Positions 93 to 12,794 of a stretch of DNA of 13,194 bases are shown here, one piece after another. The position numbers were made by a program, and so were the translations under genes. The stretch is from UHGV virus genome UHGV-1629023; one strand, written 5' to 3'. This DNA is from a virus. Each line of letters begins with the position of its first letter. Position 1 is the stretch's first letter. The notes under the pieces are model-generated. The model did no database searches. It was not told where the DNA came from and saw only the letters and a list, made by a program, of their open reading frames with translations.

Positions 93-1250
93 TCACTCCA
101 CTTTTTCATCAATCCAGTCCGCCCACCACTGCATCATTTCTCTGCGTTTATCGAGATACTGAGCATGGTTGTAAATCCCGCGCACAGATCCGCCGTTGGC
201 ATGTGCCAGTTGCACTTCAATAGCATCAGCAGGCCATTCGTGCTCGTTCATAATCGTGCTGAATTCATGCCTGAATCCGTGACCGCTTTCCAGACCCTCA
301 TAGCCGATTTGTTTGATCACAAGTAGCACCGCGTTCTCGCAGATTGGCTTCTTCTTATCGTTGCGCCCGGCAAAAACAAACTCTGATACTGGTTTGGTGA
401 TTGAGCTTAGCGTAGTGAGAAGTTCAACTACCTGGTCTGACATCGGTACTACATGAATCTTGCGGCCCTTCATCACATTGGCGTCGATGGTGATAATCCT
501 GTTTTCAAAATCGACGTTCTTCCATTGCATGGAACGAAGCTCTTTCGTTCTTAGGGCTGTATAGCGTAAAACCTTGGTGGCAATGAGCGATACGATACTT
601 CCTGAAAATGTTGCCAGTGCTTTATTGAATGCCGGGATCTGGTCTGCAGGAAGAAACGGGAAGTTCTTCTTGCGGTATCCCTTCATGGCGTCAGCAAGGT
701 CAGGTGCTGGGTTATATTTAGCCCTTCCGGTGACAATAGCGTAACGGAAAACCTCGCCGCATCTTCTGCGGGCTTTGTTGGCTCGCTCCATTGCACCGCG
801 ATCTTCAAATCTGCGGATTACTTCCAGCAGTTGCATCGGCTCAATATCCTGAATCTCAAGGCCGCCGATGATGGGTAAAATGTCGTCATCAAACATTTTG
901 GCAAGTTCAGTCGCATACCCTACTGACCATACTTGCTTCTTGTGCTCGTACCATTCCTTGTAAATGGCGCTAAAGGAATTGTTATTAGACGAAGCCTTTT
1001 TCGCTTTTACCGGATCGATGCCAACCGAGATGTCTTTCCTCGCGGTCCATGCTTTATCCCTTGCCTCCTGCAAAGTCATAAGCGGATATTTTCCGACGGT
1101 CAGTATTTTTTCCTTACCGTCAATCTTGTAGCGAAGCTGCCATACCTTTTTCCCGGATACAGGAACATAAAGGTACAGGCCATTACCATCGAGAAGGCGG
1201 TATGGTTTTTCTTTCGGCTTTGCTGCTTCAATCTGCTTAACGGTGAGCAT
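93..1250 (-). CDS. int: Tyrosine site-specific integrase, P4-type (IntS-like)
   Basis: The track ORF 93..1286 opens on a GTG; the first in-frame ATG at 1250 gives a 385-aa protein starting MLTVKQIEAAKPKEKPYRL, the typical N-terminus of P4-family enterobacterial integrases. C-terminus carries HGFRHEF ... RGIYNHAQY (catalytic His/Arg/Tyr region). Terminal position with xis immediately upstream. Confidence 0.9.
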   Translation of the reverse strand: MLTVKQIEAAKPKEKPYRLLDGNGLYLYVPVSGKKVWQLRYKIDGKEKILTVGKYPLMTLQEARDKAWTARKDISVGIDPVKAKKASSNNNSFSAIYKEWYEHKKQVWSVGYATELAKMFDDDILPIIGGLEIQDIEPMQLLEVIRRFEDRGAMERANKARRRCGEVFRYAIVTGRAKYNPAPDLADAMKGYRKKNFPFLPADQIPAFNKALATFSGSIVSLIATKVLRYTALRTKELRSMQWKNVDFENRIITIDANVMKGRKIHVVPMSDQVVELLTTLSSITKPVSEFVFAGRNDKKKPICENAVLLVIKQIGYEGLESGHGFRHEFSTIMNEHEWPADAIEVQLAHANGGSVRGIYNHAQYLDKRREMMQWWADWIDEKVE

Positions 1251-1499
1251 GGGTAAAAATCCGGTGGGTAAAATTATTTTATCCACTTTTTACCCGTCAT
1301 GGTGTGCGGCTGTCAACGATCTGACGCGAACCATTACGAACTGTGAATCTATGGAAGGCTTGATATGCAGGGGATTTTGCGGACTAGTACGGATGGGAGC
1401 GAACTGATAAATGGTGTCCCCTGCAGACATCTACTTGAAGCGGCAGGGGATTGATTGGAATGGTGTTTTTTAGGTGTGAGAAATATTTTACCCGCTATT

Positions 1500-4097: not shown

Positions 4098-4555
4098 TGG
4101 CTGCCTCCTTTGCGAAGCTGCTCCGCACAATGCAGCAGGGCGTCCGTCGCTTCTTTCACCGTAACGATGTCGCCATCGTCCAGCCCGGCAACCGTCGCGT
4201 CCTTAACGAACACCGAGCAAAGGTCATTAAACGCCTGCGCCCGTACTTCAGCCAAGAAAGCGTCGGTGGCTGTGGTTTCGATATCGTTAATTTCAGGAAG
4301 AATCTCTTCCCATGTAGCGATATCGCCATTCAAATGCCACCCGGCAATTCCACTGGAGTTATCCGCAACACTCCGAACGGCTTCAATAGTTTCATGCATT
4401 GCCGCATTCAACGCCGCCAGCGCCGCGCACTTGGCCTCCGCTTCAGCAAATTTACGCACCAGATATTCAGCGTTTGTTTCGTTAACCTTTAAATCTCGGG
4501 GGATGCATTTACCTTTCAGGAATCCATCCATCTCAATTAGTGACATTTGTTTCAT
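4094..4555 (-). CDS. Hypothetical phage protein (153 aa)
   Basis: Intact ORF; its stop overlaps the downstream GTG start (GTGA) and its ATG at 4555 overlaps the stop of the upstream small gene (ATGA), so it is translationally coupled. Acidic protein, no family recognised. Confidence 0.65.
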
Positions 4556-4716
4556 TTCTTCCCACTCCGCAACATCGCATTCAGATATTTGTTGTCATTA
4601 ACAGAACCGAAACTATTTCTCTTAAGTAATTCCTCTCTCGATGGCATTGGCTTTACGCGTTGGCGAATAATCATTTCTGCCGGAAGAATGCCGGGATTGT
4701 ATGCAAGTCCTCTCAT
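4552..4716 (-). CDS. Small hypothetical protein (about 54 aa)
   Basis: ATG at 4716 preceded by GAGGAA (7-nt spacer) and 10 nt after the upstream stop; the track ORF 4552..4869 overlaps the upstream gene and is probably over-extended. Start choice is uncertain (alternative ATGs at 4734 and 4749). Confidence 0.4.
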
Positions 4717-4726
4717 GGTAAATTCC

Positions 4727-5023
4727 TCAGTCATTACTGATAGCGCCATAGCGTGAGCGGTAATTACGCAGACGCGGGTCGATATATTCAGGGAAGTTGG
4801 TATATGTGGCTTTGCGGAATGGTCGGATTGATGTCTGGTAAATTCGCTCGCGTTCTTGTTTCTCTGCAAGCCATATACAATGACGAAATTCCTTTTCCTC
4901 TTTCGTTTCCTGCGGTAGCGACATTATCAGGTCGTAGTTTTTTCTGAATTTATCCAGCACCTCCAATACGGAATTGCCGGAACAGCGGCGCGCGTCGTCC
5001 GCACCATACAGAGGCGCTGGCAT
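4727..5023 (-). CDS. Hypothetical phage protein (98 aa)
   Basis: ATG at 5023 with AAGGA SD (7-nt spacer); lies between the SSB-like gene and the downstream ea genes on the same strand. Confidence 0.65.
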
Positions 5024-5046
5024 AATGGAATCCTTATGTTGCTACT

Positions 5047-5430
5047 TTAGAAGGGAATTGAATCGTCGTATTCAGGATGATTTTGATGATTGCTACTTTG
5101 CTGCTGTTGGCTGTTTCCTGAAGTTGCAAATCCAATCTTTGCATTCAGTAATTCAAGAGTGATTGATTGACCATTTTGCCCCTGATAAACATCAACCCTG
5201 ATGTTTTCTCCGGTAATTTCTACAATGCCACCTTCAACAAGAACACTACGGTAGTAATCCGCTTGCGCTCCCGGCTTGGCAAATACAACGGCGCTGTAGT
5301 TTGTCCATTCTTTCTTTTTTGTCTGGCGATCGTAATACTGAACGCCAGCACGGATGTTGAATCCGATATTTTCCCCGGCCTGAAACTCTCTTGCTGGCTT
5401 GTTTAGTCTTACAGTAATCGAATGTGCCAT
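5047..5430 (-). CDS. ssb: Phage single-stranded DNA-binding protein-like (SSB-like)
   Basis: 127 aa ending ...SSNHQNHPEYDDSIPF: a Gln/Ser-rich linker and acidic DDxIPF tail characteristic of bacterial and phage SSB C-termini. Immediately downstream of erf with a TAATG stop/start overlap. Confidence 0.6.
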   Translation of the reverse strand: MAHSITVRLNKPAREFQAGENIGFNIRAGVQYYDRQTKKKEWTNYSAVVFAKPGAQADYYRSVLVEGGIVEITGENIRVDVYQGQNGQSITLELLNAKIGFATSGNSQQQQSSNHQNHPEYDDSIPF

Positions 5431-6035
5431 TAAGCAGCCGCTCCTTCTAATTCATCTCGTCTGATGTTGTAAACGTCCTGCGCTTTGTGCTGCTCCGGTG
5501 TGCCTTCGAGCATCTTCCACGCTTTGGCGAACGCCTGTTTAAGCTCTTCTACGGTGTTTTTCTGCATTGCTGCGTCAGTGAATGCCTTTAAAACCTGTTC
5601 AGGTGTAGGTGATGGCTTTGATTGCTTTGCTGCTGCGTTCTGCTGATGTTTATGCTCGTCTGTATCTGCATCTTTCGCATCATCTATGCCGAACAAACCA
5701 TTGAGGCAATACTTGCGTGCATAAGAGCTTGTAGCTCCAGTAACTTGTGCAGAATCCATTCCTTTCTTGCTTTCTTCCTCTCGTGCAAGGGCGGTTGCCG
5801 TATGACTGTTTTCGCCATCGGTAATAGTTGCCGTGGCTTTCACGTAATACCGATCACCAATCAACACAACTTCATCGCTGATTGATAAAAACAGGCCATT
5901 CAGTAGCGGCTTAACGCCTTCAAGAATGTCTTCGCAGCTTCTGTATTTATATTTACCGAATGAGTTGTACTGATTCTTTGGCGCGTTCAGATTCTCCTGA
6001 ATAGCTGCCAGTCTTGCGTAAAATTCTTTGCTCAT
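5430..6035 (-). CDS. erf: Erf family single-strand annealing recombinase (P22 Erf-like)
   Basis: From the ATG at 6035 the product begins MSKEFYARLAAIQENLNAPKNQYNSFGKYKYRSCEDILEGVKPLL..., which I recognise as the phage P22 Erf N-terminus (recalled, not searched). The track start at 6065 is a TTG over-extension. Confidence 0.85.
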   Translation of the reverse strand: MSKEFYARLAAIQENLNAPKNQYNSFGKYKYRSCEDILEGVKPLLNGLFLSISDEVVLIGDRYYVKATATITDGENSHTATALAREEESKKGMDSAQVTGATSSYARKYCLNGLFGIDDAKDADTDEHKHQQNAAAKQSKPSPTPEQVLKAFTDAAMQKNTVEELKQAFAKAWKMLEGTPEQHKAQDVYNIRRDELEGAAA

Positions 6036-6045
6036 ATGATTGTTC

Positions 6046-6216
6046 TCAGAATGGACATGGCCCAAGGAAATAACGCTGATTTAATACTTCGACTCGGGAC
6101 AAATTAAGGCATACCCGCATTCCTTCGCGGTCGCCATTATGGCGATACCAGAGAGCTTTCTGCGTGTACATGCGTCTCTGTAACTTGCTCTCCTTCACTG
6201 TGGTTGCAAGTGACAT
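6046..6216 (-). CDS. Small ORF immediately upstream of erf (56 aa, arf-position), tentative
   Basis: ATG at 6216 preceded by AAGGAG (7-nt spacer); stop 10 nt before the erf ATG. Product MSLATTVKESKLQRRMYTQKALWYRHNGDREGMRVCLNLSRVEVLNQRYFLGPCPF. Conflicts with an alternative 52-aa ORF 6137..6295 in another frame. Confidence 0.3.
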   Translation of the reverse strand: MSLATTVKESKLQRRMYTQKALWYRHNGDREGMRVCLNLSRVEVLNQRYFLGPCPF

Positions 6217-6291
6217 GAATATCTCCTTCGTTACCGATTAAATCTTTCATCTGACGAATGAATTCTTCGTCTGAACAGTTATCTGTAAAAC

Positions 6292-6444
6292 TCATTTCCT
6301 GCGATACCACGGAAGGTTGATAGCTGATTTCATCGCTTTATTTGCTTCAATCCACATTTTTGAATCACCAATAAATCTGGCTATTACTGCTTTGTTCTGT
6401 GCAGCACGAAGCATCTGGTGATTGATGGCTATTTCATTGCGCAT
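6292..6444 (-). CDS. kil: Kil-like small protein (50 aa), tentative
   Basis: ATG at 6444 preceded by GAGGT (6-nt spacer), overlapping the 3' end of the cIII-like gene. Product MRNEIAINHQMLRAAQNKAVIARFIGDSKMWIEANKAMKSAINLPWYRRK. Assignment rests on position (between cIII and erf) and size. Confidence 0.4.
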   Translation of the reverse strand: MRNEIAINHQMLRAAQNKAVIARFIGDSKMWIEANKAMKSAINLPWYRRK

Positions 6445-6584: not shown

Positions 6585-7553
6585 TTAGTAGGTTATTTTT
6601 GTTGCGAATACTTCGCCTTTTACGATGGCTGTTATGATATTTTTAGCAACATCTTCTGATGCGCCAACCTTGATAAGGTCAGCAAGTATTTTGTTATTTA
6701 CTTCTTTCCGGTGAGCTTTATCCTTTGCTCTACGCTCTTCTTCGCCCTTGATTCTTTTTTCTTCTGCTATTCTGGCTTGCTCTTTTGCTTCAGCCTCGCG
6801 ACGGATTCGTTCAGCCTCCTCCTGTGCTTTTCTGCGTTCTGCTTCAATTGCTGCCTGCTTTTCTCTTTCAGCTCGTTCTGCTGCCTCTTTTGCTTCGCGC
6901 TGTGCTCGTTGCTCGGCTTCAATGCGTTCACGCTCTGCACGTTCCGCTGCGGCCTTAGCTTCTGCTTCTCGCCTTGCTGCTGCTTCAATTTCGGCTTTTG
7001 CCTTTGCTTCGGCTTCTGCTCTGGCTTTCTCTTCAGCTTCTCTTTTTAATCGTTCTTCATGCTCTCGCTTTTCCTGCTCCGCTTTGAGTCTTGCCTCTTC
7101 TCTTTGGCGGTCAAATTCGCGATCCATCAAAATAGCTATTTCATGGTCAGACTCAATTTGCTTTGCGAGAGCTTCAGCTGCTGCCTTAGCTTCTTCTTCG
7201 GCTTTAATCCGCGCCTGTTCTTCCTCATAATCAGTAAGAGGCTGGCGCGCCTTGGCTTTCAGCTCATCAAGGCGATCACGCACTGTCTTGCGGTTAGCAT
7301 CAATTAGCTTTGGAATTTCCTTCAGTTCAGCAACAAGGTCTTTGCCAAGACCATCGAGATATGTTTTCGTCTGCGCAACTTTATACGCCAGAGAAGCGAT
7401 CTCCTTTCTGCCCTTTGCCGTTGTGATATCAGGCACAAAGGACATAACTTCATGTTCAACCTTTTGAAGGATTTCTTCAATCTGGTCGGCAGACTGAAAT
7501 ACAGTCATTGCATTTGCTTTTTCAATAACAACTAAATCTGTTACTTCACTCAT
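6585..7553 (-). CDS. Large early-left protein with a long E/A/K/R-rich coiled-coil core; function unknown
   Basis: ATG at 7553 preceded by GGAGGA (the track start at 7607 is upstream of this SD). N-terminal globular part (MSEVTDLVVIEKANAMTVFQSADQIEEILQKVEHEV...), about 150 aa of EAEAKAKAEIEAAARREAEAKAAAERAERERIEAEQRAQREAKEAAERAERE-type repeats, and a short C-terminal tail. Confidence 0.7.
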   Translation of the reverse strand: MSEVTDLVVIEKANAMTVFQSADQIEEILQKVEHEVMSFVPDITTAKGRKEIASLAYKVAQTKTYLDGLGKDLVAELKEIPKLIDANRKTVRDRLDELKAKARQPLTDYEEEQARIKAEEEAKAAAEALAKQIESDHEIAILMDREFDRQREEARLKAEQEKREHEERLKREAEEKARAEAEAKAKAEIEAAARREAEAKAAAERAERERIEAEQRAQREAKEAAERAEREKQAAIEAERRKAQEEAERIRREAEAKEQARIAEEKRIKGEEERRAKDKAHRKEVNNKILADLIKVGASEDVAKNIITAIVKGEVFATKITY

Positions 7554-8635: not shown

Positions 8636-9004
8636 TTAGTCAGCGAAGGTTAAGACGAGAATTACCTTAATGATGTCTGCTACAACAGACACGGCCATAG
8701 ATAAACCAAAGACGATCCAAGCCACAGTGATGTCTTCACTACCATCGTATAGAGTTCCGTAATCACTGGTGTAAGGCGTAAATGTCGCGCCTTGATACAA
8801 TAGGTATAAGCTTGATCCATAGAGGATAAATGCAGATATCCCTTGTATTGCTATGATCACCAGAATCATGAAACGAGCTGATCTATGCGCCCAAGCCTGG
8901 CTTATTTTTTCTGATAGAGATTTCGCAATAAAAGCATGCGCTAAGCCGTAAATTGTCGAGATTGCCAACATCCCAAAAAAGCTTGCTATAGCGGTTCCAA
9001 CCAT
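8636..9004 (-). CDS. Small integral membrane protein (about 122 aa, 3 predicted TM helices) encoded immediately downstream of cI
   Basis: ATG at 9004 preceded by AAGGGG (5-nt spacer) (the track start at 9025 is a TTG overlapping the cI stop). Three hydrophobic segments (AIASFFGMLAISTIYGLAHAFIA; FMILVIIAIQGISAFILYGSSLYLLY; VAWIVFGLSMAVSVVADIIKVILVLTF). Occupies the slot held by rexA-rexB in lambda. Confidence 0.6.
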   Translation of the reverse strand: MVGTAIASFFGMLAISTIYGLAHAFIAKSLSEKISQAWAHRSARFMILVIIAIQGISAFILYGSSLYLLYQGATFTPYTSDYGTLYDGSEDITVAWIVFGLSMAVSVVADIIKVILVLTFAD

Positions 9005-9021
9005 AATCGCCCCTTGCGTGA

Positions 9022-9738
9022 TCAAACCAGCCTTAGTTTTGTCTCAATTGCAACGCCTATAATCTTGCAGTTTCCATTGATTGGCACGAGAGGCCATGCA
9101 GGATTAAGTCCCTTGAGGTATTTATTTCCGCCGTCGATTATCAGCTTCTTGAATGTTGCTTCGTTAGAGTCAGAAAGTTTTGCTATGACCAAGCTGCCGT
9201 TGATCGCCTCCCTTCCGGTATCGAAAAGAACGAATGTTCCCTCTGGAATGCTTAACCCAACCGGTGCCGTCATTGAATCACCTTCCACTTTAAGCCAGAA
9301 CGCATTACCTTGAATATGCGCGTCAGACTCAAGCCAAACATCTATGTCTTTAATGGTGTATGGTTCGCATGCTTCACACCACGAGCCAGCCTGGATACTG
9401 CTTAACACCGGATACCTCTTTCCTGCTCTGTATTCCCCTGCATACCTTACGTTGGCATCGCTCTTAAGGCTTTCTGCCTGTTCTGCAACCTTGGCAGCAA
9501 TTGACTGGCTAAAATCAGCAATTGAGACTTGCAACAATCGTGCAAAACCAGATGCAACCTCAACGTTTAGCGCATTTCTGCCATTAAGATAATGCCCTAC
9601 CGCTCCTTGGGTGATACCCAGTTCATCAGCGATTGAGTATTGGGTTATCCCCAATTCTTTCTTTTTTGACTCATACAAAGCCTTAAGCCGCTTAGCGTCT
9701 TCCAGCTGTTCTGTCGTCAGTGATTTTTTATTTTCCAT
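9022..9738 (-). CDS. cI: CI repressor (lambda CI family, HTH plus S24 LexA-like autopeptidase domain)
   Basis: 238 aa; N-terminus MENKKSLTTEQLEDAKRLKALYESKKKELGITQ... parallels lambda CI ([34 protein letters not shown], recalled). C-terminal domain has GDSM (catalytic Ser) and ATFKKL (Lys). Divergent from cro across the OR region. Confidence 0.9.
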   Translation of the reverse strand: MENKKSLTTEQLEDAKRLKALYESKKKELGITQYSIADELGITQGAVGHYLNGRNALNVEVASGFARLLQVSIADFSQSIAAKVAEQAESLKSDANVRYAGEYRAGKRYPVLSSIQAGSWCEACEPYTIKDIDVWLESDAHIQGNAFWLKVEGDSMTAPVGLSIPEGTFVLFDTGREAINGSLVIAKLSDSNEATFKKLIIDGGNKYLKGLNPAWPLVPINGNCKIIGVAIETKLRLV

Positions 9739-10451: not shown

Positions 10452-10619
10452 ATGACAAAACGTCGTAAGAAATACCAGGAAAAAGAAGAGATTCGACACC
10501 CTGATTCACCTGAGGGATTAGTGGTAGCCGCAGCAAATAACAGGGCGTTCGCAGAGCGCCTTGTTGGTGTTTACAGACTAGCCAAAGCAGGAGTGAAACA
10601 TGGGCGTCGTTAAGTTAGC
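10452..10619 (+). CDS. Small basic ORF between cII and O (55 aa), tentative
   Basis: ATG at 10452 preceded by CAGGAG (6-nt spacer); product [53 protein letters not shown]. Overlaps the O start by 20 nt. Absent from the track only because it is under 60 aa. Confidence 0.3.
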
Positions 10620-11421
10620 TGATTACAGGCCTCAACTGGAGGTCGTGGAGCATCGCGTGGCAGATACCGAAGATGGTTTCATGCGCGTTGCTAACGAGAT
10701 TACCGACAGTCTGCTGATGGCTGATTTAACCGTCCGGCAGTTGAAGGTGATGCTCGCTATCATGCGCAAGACATATGGATTCAATAAGCCGATGGATCGA
10801 CTCACAAACACGCAGATAGCAGCCATGACAGGTATTCATCACACTCATGTTTGCGCTGCCAAGCGCCAGCTTATTGAGCGTAAATTCCTCATTGCTGATG
10901 GCGTGAAAATCGGAGTGAACAAGGTGGTTTCTCAGTGGATTAGCCAGGACAGCTTAACATTAGCTAAAACAGCTAATAAAACATTAGCCAAGTCGGCTAA
11001 TGGGTATAAGCCAAGTCAGCTAAACACAAAAGACAATATACAAAAGACAATAAATACAAATACCCCCTTACCCCCTAACGGGGGCGGCGATGGGCAGGTT
11101 AAACCTGAACGTCGCAAGGCAGAACGAATCGACTACGAATCCTTCCTGAACGCCTACAACACCGAAGTCGGTGACAGACTTCCGCATGCTGTTGCGGTCA
11201 ACGAGAAACGCAAACGCCGCCTGAAGAAAATCATCCCGCAACTGAAAACGCCAAACGTGGACGGTTTCAGAGCGTATGTCAGGGCGTTTGTGCATCAGGC
11301 CAAACCGTTTTACTTCGGAGACAACGACACGGGCTGGACGGCCGATTTTGATTACCTGCTGAGGGAAGATTCGTTAACGGGAGTACGGGAAGGGAAGTTT
11401 GCAGACAGGGGGATTGCATGA
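10600..11421 (+). CDS. O: Replication initiation protein O (lambda O-like)
   Basis: ATG at 10600 with AGGAG SD. N-terminal domain ...[55 protein letters not shown] parallels lambda O (...DDGYARLSNMLLEAYSGADLTKRQFKVLLAILRKTYGWNKPMDRITDSQLSEIT, recalled). The central linker encodes the ori iterons. Stop overlaps the helicase start (ATGA). Confidence 0.85.
10938..11070 (+). repeat. ori: Replication origin: four ~20-bp iterons plus adjacent AT-rich region, inside O
   Basis: attagccaggacagcttaac (10939-10958), cattagctaaaacagctaat (10958-10977), cattagccaagtcggctaat (10982-11001), ataagccaagtcagctaaac (11006-11025), each with internal TTAGC...GCTAA dyad symmetry at roughly 24-bp periodicity, followed by an A-rich run (11026-11062). 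Architecture matches lambda ori. Confidence 0.55.
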
Positions 11422-12794
11422 GACAGGATATCGAAGCGAGCGTTATCGGTGGCCTGCTGATTGGTGGATTAACTCCAACCGCCAGCGACGTTCTGGCAAC
11501 GCTGGAGCCGGAAGCGTTTTCAATTCCGCTCTACCGGAAAGCCTTCGAGGTTATCCGCAAGCAGGCGAGAAACAGAAACCTAATCGATGCGCTGATGGTT
11601 GCCGAGGCGTGCGGAGAGGAGAATTTCACGTCAATCCTGATGACCAGCAAAAACTGTCCGAGTGCCGCAAACCTGAAGGGATATGCCGGAATGGTCGCGG
11701 ATAACTATCACCGCCGTCTGGTGCTGGAAATCATGGATGAAATGCGTGAACCAATCCAAAGCGGAACCATCGACGCATCGAGTCAGGCGATGGATGAACT
11801 TGTAAAGCGTCTTTCAGCCATCAGAAAGCCCCGTGACGAGGTTAAACCTGTACGGTTAGGGGAAATCATCACTGACTACACTGACACGCTTGACAGGCGT
11901 CTGAGGAACGGAGAAGAGTCAGATACCCTGAAGACCGGAATCGACGAACTTGACGCCATCACCGGAGGGATGAACGCGGAAGACCTGGTGATAATCGCCG
12001 CTCGTCCTGGTATGGGGAAAACCGAACTGGCGCTAAAGATTGCCGAAGGCGTTGCAAGCCGCGTTATTCCTGGTTCTGACGTCAGGCGCGGGGTATTGAT
12101 TTTCTCAATGGAAATGAGCGCATTGCAGATTGCAGAGCGAAGCATTGCCAACGCCGGGAGGATGTCGGTTAGCGTGCTGCGAAATCCTGCTTCGATGGAT
12201 GACGAAGGCTGGGCGCGCGTTGCTAATGGCATGAGTCAGCTTGCAGATTTGGATGTATGGGTAGTCGATGCCTCGCGGTTATCGGTCGAAGAAATACGCT
12301 CAATCGCAGAACGGCACAAACAGGAAAATCCAAACCTGTCACTCATCATGGTGGATTATCTTGGCCTGATTGAGAAGCCGAAAGCAGATCGCAACGATCT
12401 CGCAATTGCTCACATCTCCGGAAGCCTGAAGGCGATGGCGAAAGACCTGAAAACGCCTGTTATCTCCCTAAGTCAGCTTTCGCGCGATGTTGAGAAGCGA
12501 CCAAACAAACGCCCGACAAACGCAGATTTGCGTGATTCAGGAAGCATTGAACAGGACGCAGACTCAATCATCATGCTCTATCGGGAAGCGGTATATGACG
12601 AGAACAGTAGCGCCGCGCCATTTGCTGAAATCATCGTGACAAAAAACCGTTTTGGCTCACTTGGTACGGTTTACCAGCGGTTCTGCAACGGACACTTTGT
12701 TGCATGTGATCAGGATGAAGCCAGACAGATTTGCACAGCATCAAATGCACCTGCTGCGCGTGGCAGACGATATGCACAAGGGGCTGACGTATGA
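11418..12794 (+). CDS. Replicative DNA helicase, DnaB family (phage-encoded, P22 gene 12-like)
   Basis: 458 aa with a Walker A motif ([14 protein letters not shown]) and DnaB-type C-terminal helicase motifs ([10 protein letters not shown]; [39 protein letters not shown]). Start overlaps the O stop (ATGA). Confidence 0.9.

Follow-up and report, generated by a model that had tools for sequence, protein, structure and literature searches.

A divergent SSB-type OB-fold protein predicted between erf and abc2 in the Rec module of an HK97/HK022-type lambdoid prophage

Gene content of the leftward Rec module

What protein is encoded directly after erf in UHGV virus genome UHGV-1629023, and what might it do for the annealase beside it? 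The stretch of DNA analysed, referred to below as the window, comprises 13,194 nucleotides and was recognised from its open reading frames and domain searches as the early region of a lambdoid prophage. A first-pass annotation had described the 127-residue product of this gene as an SSB-like protein with an acidic, host-type tail, had placed it downstream of an Erf-family annealase in a module arranged differently from that of P22, and had suggested that it could compete with host SSB. The features considered are as follows.

93-1286, minus strand: integrase
leftward block, listed after the integrase, minus strand: Ead/Ea22 protein
4552..4716, minus strand: DUF2737 gene, HK97 gp38 homologue (PF10930, E = 4.9e-31)
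4727..5023, minus strand: abc2, anti-RecBCD protein 2 (PF11043, E = 1.7e-60; phrog_656)
5047-5430, minus strand: gene for the 127-residue SSB-like protein (ATG at 5430-5428, coding to 5050, stop at 5047-5049)
5430-6035, minus strand: erf (ATG at 6035, TAA stop at 5430-5432)
5441..5447, minus strand: Shine-Dalgarno sequence GAAGGAG serving the SSB gene, 10 nt from its ATG and within the 3' end of erf
6046..6216, minus strand: small ORF in the arf slot, HK97 gp42 homologue (phrog_1723, E = 9.4e-36)
6137..6295, minus strand: small ORF in the arf slot, directly after kil, resembling HK75 gp33
leftward block beyond the arf-slot ORFs, minus strand: kil and cIII
9022-9738: cI repressor
10600-12794, rightward: O-type initiator and DnaB-type helicase

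The leftward genes run in the order cIII, kil, arf-like, erf, ssb and abc2, followed by the DUF2737 gene, and the region is the Rec module of an HK97/HK022-type lambdoid prophage, reading leftward from pL. The abc2 gene starts 23 nt downstream of the SSB gene, and the DUF2737 gene lies 3' of abc2, as it does in the annotations of P22, HK97 and HK620. Two small ORFs occupy the arf slot. The product of 6137..6295 is identical to HK75 gp33 at 46 of 52 positions and weakly resembles P22 Arf at its N terminus (FSDEEFI), with no match in Pfam; HK75 Gp33 has been reported as a trigger of P2 OLD (preprint 10.64898/2026.07.10.737580). The ORF at 6046..6216 lies in another frame, shares 80 nt with its neighbour and stops 10 nt short of the erf ATG; its product is 100% identical in Sf6 and HK106, and 82% identical in HK75 and HK022.

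The erf and SSB genes overlap by a single base, position 5430, where the TAA stop of the former and the ATG of the latter form TAATG. Because of this overlap, and because GAAGGAG is placed within erf 10 nt upstream of the ATG, translation of the two genes is likely to be coupled. The module is real and probably functional.

Close relatives and distribution

Across 1.8 kb (positions 4500-6300) the DNA is 95-97% identical to HK97, Sf101, HK106, HK022 and several Stx phages. The 127-residue protein is 100% identical to proteins of HK022 and mEp213 and agrees with the deposited HK97 gp40 at 120 of 129 positions; by this identity, and by its place between erf and abc2, it belongs to the HK97 gp40 family. 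Gene 40 in the HK97 record, likewise between erf and abc2, is labelled only 'Gp40', and its product was named SSB-1b, from a predicted AF3 fold resembling that of bacterial SSB, by Casjens, Smith and co-workers (Genome Res 2025, PMC12315714). The arrangement belongs to a functional class of lambdoid Rec modules that combines an anti-RecBCD protein, an SSB and an annealase without a nuclease and accounts for 27 of 325 panel phages in that work; among the 246 Enterobacteriales panel phages whose Rec module genes could be recognised, 177 have no SSB gene in that module (PMC12315714).

Of 5426 complete E. coli genomes, 579 carry the gene, under the label 'hypothetical protein' and beside 'ERF family protein'. 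There is no Pfam family for it, and this label, assigned by NCBI's PGAP in about 10% of these genomes, marks an annotation gap that a family model would close. The arrangement itself is the standard HK97/HK022/Sf101 module and has already been described; it holds little new biology, the module being that of the long-studied HK97 and HK022 and its SSB-like gene already named in print.

The 127-residue protein is predicted to adopt an SSB-type OB fold

The product ends in NHQNHPEYDDSIPF, the last residues being EYDDSIPF. Three parts could be distinguished.

5122..5430, minus strand: OB-fold domain, residues 1-103
5074..5121, minus strand: disordered linker rich in S, N and Q, residues 104-119 (pLDDT <50; no charged or aromatic residues)
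5050..5073, minus strand: C-terminal tip EYDDSIPF, residues 120-127

Matching by sequence was weak in Pfam and the PDB. A Pfam scan of the 127-residue protein returned no match at E<=10, SSB (PF00436) included; when its homologues were scanned, 5 of 36 matched PF00436, the best at E = 0.0056, which is below the curated cut-off. Searches against PDB sequences gave marginal SSB matches (E = 0.042 for the sequence alone and 0.22 for the profile; range E = 0.04-0.26). Among the PHROG families, phrog_44, 'single strand DNA binding protein', was matched at E = 1.8e-28.

For comparison within the family, 320 relatives were collected among 5.8 billion proteins, of which 36 diverse members were aligned and 107 full-length ones were used for examination of the tip. 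The alignment of 36 shows a conserved region of about 103 residues, then a segment of variable length rich in Q, P, S and N, and finally [FYW]-D-D-x-I-P-F. An AF2 model built on this alignment (mean pLDDT 83.5, with ten-residue blocks at 89-96 over residues 1-100 apart from one at 81) contains a five-stranded OB barrel with long beta-hairpin loops, a capping helix at residues 55-63 between strands 3 and 4, and a disordered tail. When the model was compared with the PDB using Foldseek, the best 50 matches (E<=0.001) were all bacterial or mitochondrial SSBs or PriB, the top one at E = 1.9e-5 with a TM score of about 0.45.

The ssDNA-binding surface of E. coli SSB includes Trp-40, Trp-54, Phe-60 and Trp-88 (W40, W54, F60 and W88), which stack on ssDNA. 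An hhalign comparison of the family profile with E. coli SSB (query sequence identical to PDB 1EQQ) gave a probability of 86% (E = 4.9e-6, 52 columns) and paired these four residues with Y32, W42, F50 and Y82, respectively. In the 36 homologues Y32 and F50 are invariant, W42 is present in at least 90%, and Y or F stands at position 82 throughout, which suggests that the ssDNA-stacking aromatics are kept in the SSB-1b family. At the position of E. coli SSB His55 the family has an invariant T-N-Y insertion.

Despite the weak sequence tests, the OB model, the Foldseek matches and the alignment of aromatic residues together identify the product, in our view, as an SSB-type OB-fold protein too divergent for family models to detect; HK97 gp40 is described in the same way in PMC12315714. 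The OB fold for which alignment and structure prediction had been proposed as a check is present in the model, and the first-pass description of the protein as SSB-like is borne out by the barrel, the SSB and PriB matches, the profile comparison and the conserved acidic tip described below. We infer both ssDNA binding by the SSB-1b protein and its oligomeric state.

The general plan, an OB core followed by a disordered linker and a D-D-x-I-P-F tip, is shared with E. coli SSB and with canonical phage SSB-1 proteins (such as those of HK75, gp31, and of Sf6 and ES18; PF00436), and HK75 gp31, a canonical SSB, is likewise encoded between an annealase and abc2. Unlike E. coli SSB, the 127-residue protein has an OB core that falls under the Pfam threshold and a linker of about 16 rather than about 55 residues.

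Conservation of the C-terminal tip

EYDDSIPF follows the 16-residue linker as the acidic tip of an SSB does; it is close to the E. coli SSB tip DFDDDIPF, and in hhalign it aligns with PMDFDDDIPF of the canonical HK75 SSB. Among the full-length homologues, 82 of 107 end in xP[FY], and in these the last nine residues average 2.4 acidic and 0.01 basic residues. One homologue (P0094) carries the exact E. coli tip MDFDDDIPF. The stretch between barrel and tip ranges from 12 to 72 residues in length and is without sequence conservation. To keep a terminal motif across so unconstrained a linker is characteristic of a tip that has a function, and its recurrence is more than would be expected by chance. 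The SSB-type acidic tail proposed in the first-pass annotation is therefore a conserved feature of the family, present in those 82 homologues.

Some members lack it. About 13 environmental homologues have Q-rich ends without acidic residues, one of which (P0100) is encoded directly after an ERF gene; three further homologues carry a few additional residues after DIPF. In the deposited HK97 gp40 an extra C turns the terminal DDSIPF into DDSNPILI, each followed by the stop codon, and the same entry carries the change Y32H; the window copy has the family consensus intact at both of the altered positions. The tip-less distant homologues and the frameshifted HK97 allele show that the tip is not indispensable everywhere.

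Erf and comparison with the P22 module

The annealase upstream of the SSB gene was assigned to the ERF family from its match to PF04404 over residues 5-143 (E = 2.1e-44; 151.6 bits against a cut-off of 25) and its closeness to P22 Erf. Two parts are recognised.

5607..6035, minus strand: N-terminal annealase core, residues 1-143 (PF04404; phrog_155, E = 2e-57)
5433..5600, minus strand: C-terminal three-helix module, residues 146-201 (AF2 single-sequence model)

Identity to P22 Erf is 74.6% overall, reaching 92% over residues 1-135 and falling to 31% over residues 153-201; the module at 146-201 is 39% identical to its P22 counterpart. The first-pass description of an Erf-family annealase with an N terminus like that of P22 Erf was accurate on both counts.

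P22 has the order kil, arf, erf, abc1, abc2, and the window has kil, arf-slot ORFs, erf, SSB gene, abc2. The two modules share their order and operon, an Erf core that is 92% identical, and homologous abc2 and DUF2737 genes; they differ in that the SSB gene stands in the abc1 slot and the last ~43 erf codons are another allele. In a blastn comparison with P22, homology was found at 4566-5026 (84.6%) and 5559-6035 (79%), and no DNA homology was seen across 5027-5558, which corresponds to the SSB gene plus those ~43 codons. The view that the arrangement is a different one holds insofar as abc1 is replaced by the SSB gene. It requires correction in that abc2, which had been overlooked, is retained 23 nt downstream, the order is otherwise that of P22, and the arrangement is known from HK97, HK022 and Sf101.

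Association of SSB-1b homologues with annealases

The gene neighbourhoods of individual distant homologues were examined for diversity of context, a search for loci with the family alignment having given 80 near-identical loci. Vibrio phage K50 encodes an Erf (56% identical) and, 11 nt further on, a 163-residue homologue ending in DWDEDIPF; the pair is flanked by an exonuclease and an HNH endonuclease. On a contig from a metagenomic phage, 4 nt separate the end of an ERF gene from an SSB-1b homologue; this homologue and that of K50 show 50-60% identity. The start of the homologue in a Leminorella prophage is overlapped by the gene for an AAA_24 (Sak4-type) annealase. One genome has an ERF gene 1 kb upstream of the homologue, and on one further contig no annealase was recognised. 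The pairing of SSB-1b with an annealase is thus mostly conserved.

The nearest counterpart examined by experiment is the SSB of HK620 (HkaK, 'SSB-2'), whose gene was first annotated as abc1 and was later found by experiment to encode an SSB (PMC5928155). HkaK binds ssDNA, and its stimulation of recombineering and annealing by Sak4 requires the C-terminal hexapeptide NDYPPF (Hutinet et al. 2018, PMC5928155). The binding of Sak4 to ssDNA coated with the HK620 SSB likewise requires this tail, through which the SSB boosts its annealase about tenfold (PMC5928155). As in the window, arf-like, annealase, SSB and abc2 genes occupy equal slots in HK620 and the SSB has a host-like tip; unlike in the window, the annealase partner is the RecA-like Sak4 and not Erf. 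Comparison of HkaK with the gp40 family by hhalign gave a probability of 0.3%, with no detectable sequence relation, so HkaK falls outside the family and the parallel is a functional one that is not based on homology. The annealases and SSBs of S. aureus phages form cognate pairs, and phage replication needs both partners (PMC5499656).

Possible roles of the SSB-1b protein

We consider it probable that the 127-residue protein serves this HK97/HK022-type Rec module as a phage SSB, passing ssDNA on to Erf. Abc2, described in work cited in PMC5928155 (Murphy 2000) as turning RecBCD into a resection enzyme, would re-programme host RecBCD into a resection machine and thereby expose ssDNA. The phage SSB, whose synthesis would be tied to that of Erf by the TAATG overlap, would coat the exposed strand, and its exposed tip would bring Erf, possibly together with host SSB-binding proteins, to the coated DNA. 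Erf could then anneal complementary strands, leading to genome circularisation, concatemers and recombination-dependent replication. By analogy, we infer a contact between the tip and Erf.

The competition with host SSB raised at the outset would make the protein a decoy, its host-like DDSIPF tip titrating ExoI, RecQ, RecO, PriA, chi and Ung off host SSB and any service to Erf being secondary. The likeness of EYDDSIPF to the E. coli tip, the exact copy of that tip in P0094 and the company of kil, cIII and abc2, neighbours in the pL operon that act on the host, all fit such a role. A pure decoy would have no need of an OB core, yet the four stacking aromatic positions are kept; the HK620 tail acts positively, recruiting the phage annealase (PMC5928155); and the gene is found repeatedly directly after, and overlapping, that of an annealase. 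We therefore regard titration of host proteins as an unlikely main function. P22 abc1 also lies between erf and abc2, with an equal stop/start overlap with erf, and the segment lacking homology to P22 coincides exactly with the SSB gene and the final ~43 codons of erf, so that an Abc1 analogue, an accessory modulator of RecBCD or Abc2 rather than an ssDNA-binding protein, might be expected in this slot. P22 Abc1, however, has Pfam matches of the helix-turn-helix type, no OB fold and no similarity to the 127-residue protein, and the same-slot gene of HK620, once annotated abc1, is by experiment an SSB (PMC5928155); an Abc1-like function is accordingly very improbable. 

A role in replication, with erf nearby only through shared early expression, would have the protein coat lagging-strand and rolling-circle ssDNA and itself couple to the host replisome and to the DnaB-type helicase of the phage. 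Bacterial SSB uses its IPF tip to bind replisome components, and genes for a DnaB-like helicase and an O-type initiator do lie in the window (10600-12794). The annealase and adjoining SSB of S. aureus phages, both of which are needed for DNA replication (PMC5499656), point the same way. Against this, the gene lies in the leftward Rec module and not in the rightward replication module, it is recombination genes that adjoin the homologue in K50 and in the Leminorella prophage, and the 177 of 246 Enterobacteriales panel phages without a Rec-module SSB would use that of the host (PMC12315714). A dedicated replication SSB seems quite unlikely on these grounds, and this reading overlaps with that of hand-off to Erf, because Erf-type recombination itself feeds replication.

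The C-terminal module of Erf

In the AF2 single-sequence model the last ~55 residues of Erf form three helices with a pLDDT of about 95. In comparisons that included a tblastn search of a phage collection, this module was seen at 38-51% identity at the ends of AAA_24, Rad52_Rad22 and RecT annealases; a large protein search with the profile of the 56-residue module yielded short fragments only.

AAA_24: Erwinia phage EhrS_59 gp42; Leminorella prophage
Rad52_Rad22: HK75 gp32 (P22-type allele, followed by the canonical SSB)
RecT: TL-2011b gp06 and Tyrion gp35 (with a RecE-like exonuclease and no phage SSB)

Comparison of the module with the C-terminal domain of Red-beta, which binds SSB, by hhalign gave a probability of 1%, indicating no sequence relation, and a Foldseek search with the module model returned nothing below E = 1, the Red-beta C-terminal domain and lambda Orf being absent. 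The sole match to PDB sequences, a 23-residue helix in the coiled coil of colicins E2, E3 and E9 (E = 0.003), was judged to be chance helical similarity. The idea that the Erf C-terminal allele always travels with the downstream gene was also set aside, HK75 having a P22-type module with a canonical SSB and the RecT carriers having no phage SSB.

Because the module is found on varied annealase cores, including those of phages without their own SSB, its partner is probably something common to these phages. 'Shuffling of partner interaction domains' is mentioned, and left unanalysed, in PMC12315714. As a tentative suggestion, which is by analogy with Red-beta and which we hold to be rather doubtful, the three-helix module could be a portable docking domain for the tip of host or phage SSB, carried on four unrelated or very distant cores (ERF, Rad52_Rad22, RecT and AAA_24/Sak4) and swapped by recombination at the junction of core and module, with SSB-1b as the phage's own supply of tips. 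If this were true, the frameshift in the tip would make the deposited HK97 allele a natural loss-of-coupling mutant.

A pairing of Erf with the SSB encoded beside it would be an obvious candidate for recombineering, by analogy with the tail-borne boost given by the HK620 SSB. For such work the choice of allele matters, as the HK97 reference clone would give the tail-less form to anyone testing the SSB-1b family.

Erf C-terminal module and the joint with P22

Comparison with P22 placed a mosaic joint within erf: DNA homology ends at about codon 159 and restarts at abc2, leaving window positions 5027-5558 without homology. The C-terminal end of Erf and the gene downstream of it therefore differ jointly between P22 and the prophage. 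In the window, Erf residues 146-201 form a three-helix C-terminal module of approximately 55 residues (5433-5600). At 38-51% identity, the module is common to annealases whose Pfam cores are of four kinds (ERF, AAA_24/Sak4-like, Rad52_Rad22 and RecT), and it was located in the following comparison loci.

Comparison loci with an Erf-type C-terminal module
L003, 2492-2665
L088, 2825-2998
L092 (HK75), 2514-2684
L095, 2495-2671
L096, 2495-2671

Gene neighbours vary among the annealases that carry it, and the module looks like a candidate portable partner-binding domain. A profile of the module also matched the coiled coil of colicins E2/E3/E9 over a 23-residue helix, QAKAVQVYNSRKSELDAA (E = 0.003); this match sits in the third helix (window 5433-5500) and is probably a chance helical similarity.

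Variation at the SSB-1b C-terminal tip

Some distant homologues of SSB-1b, the 127-aa predicted OB-fold protein encoded downstream of erf, have no acidic tip (P0091, P0095, P0100, P0112, P0117 and others), and Q-rich C-terminal ends such as ...QPNFQQPR and ...GGYNNNRG are found in its place. Three further homologues (P0101, P0102 and P0119) continue for 3-5 residues after DIPF, and the canonical SSB of HK75 (L092 2688-3194) runs 15 residues beyond DDDIPF. Taken together, the tip-less homologues and these extensions indicate that a free C-terminal Phe is not universal.

The deposited HK97 gene 40 (AF069529; L001 3540-3929) has an additional C close to its 3' end relative to window 5047-5100, whereby gp40 ends in DDSNPILI* rather than DDSIPF*; deletion of this C regains the family tip. 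The additional C arose either by mutation in a laboratory stock or through an error in the old sequence. A second difference in the deposited gp40 is Y32H, which falls opposite W40 of E. coli SSB in the alignment.

In phage records PV340537-PV340554 (mEp043, mEp213, mEp234 and PhiR12 series), the Erf gene is labelled 'Bet', although its product belongs to the ERF family and not to Red-beta/RecT. In mEp234 the match to the SSB-1b gene is limited to residues 1-49, and this copy is thus truncated.

Other open reading frames in the window

Further genes of the window are as follows.

6046-6216, minus strand, small arf-slot ORF
6137-6295, minus strand, small arf-slot ORF adjoining kil, in a different frame and overlapping the former by 80 nt
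6585-7553, minus strand, 322-aa protein, between cIII and the N-like gene
8636-9025, minus strand, 129-aa hydrophobic protein, starting at the cI stop codon with a 4-nt overlap

The 322-aa protein has a long, E/A/K/R-rich central region, probably a coiled coil; it matched phrog_1376 and phrog_21365, both of unknown function, and had no Pfam match. For the 129-aa protein, probably a membrane protein, no Pfam match was obtained either; judged by its position beside cI, the gene may be an exclusion or moron gene expressed in the lysogen.

Both arf-slot ORFs are kept in HK75, with 46/56 (6046-6216) and 46/52 (6137-6295) residues identical. The ORF adjoining kil matches P22 Arf weakly (FSDEEFI) and is the counterpart of HK75 gp33, which alone is reportedly enough to trigger the P2 OLD defence (2026 preprint, 10.64898/2026.07.10.737580).
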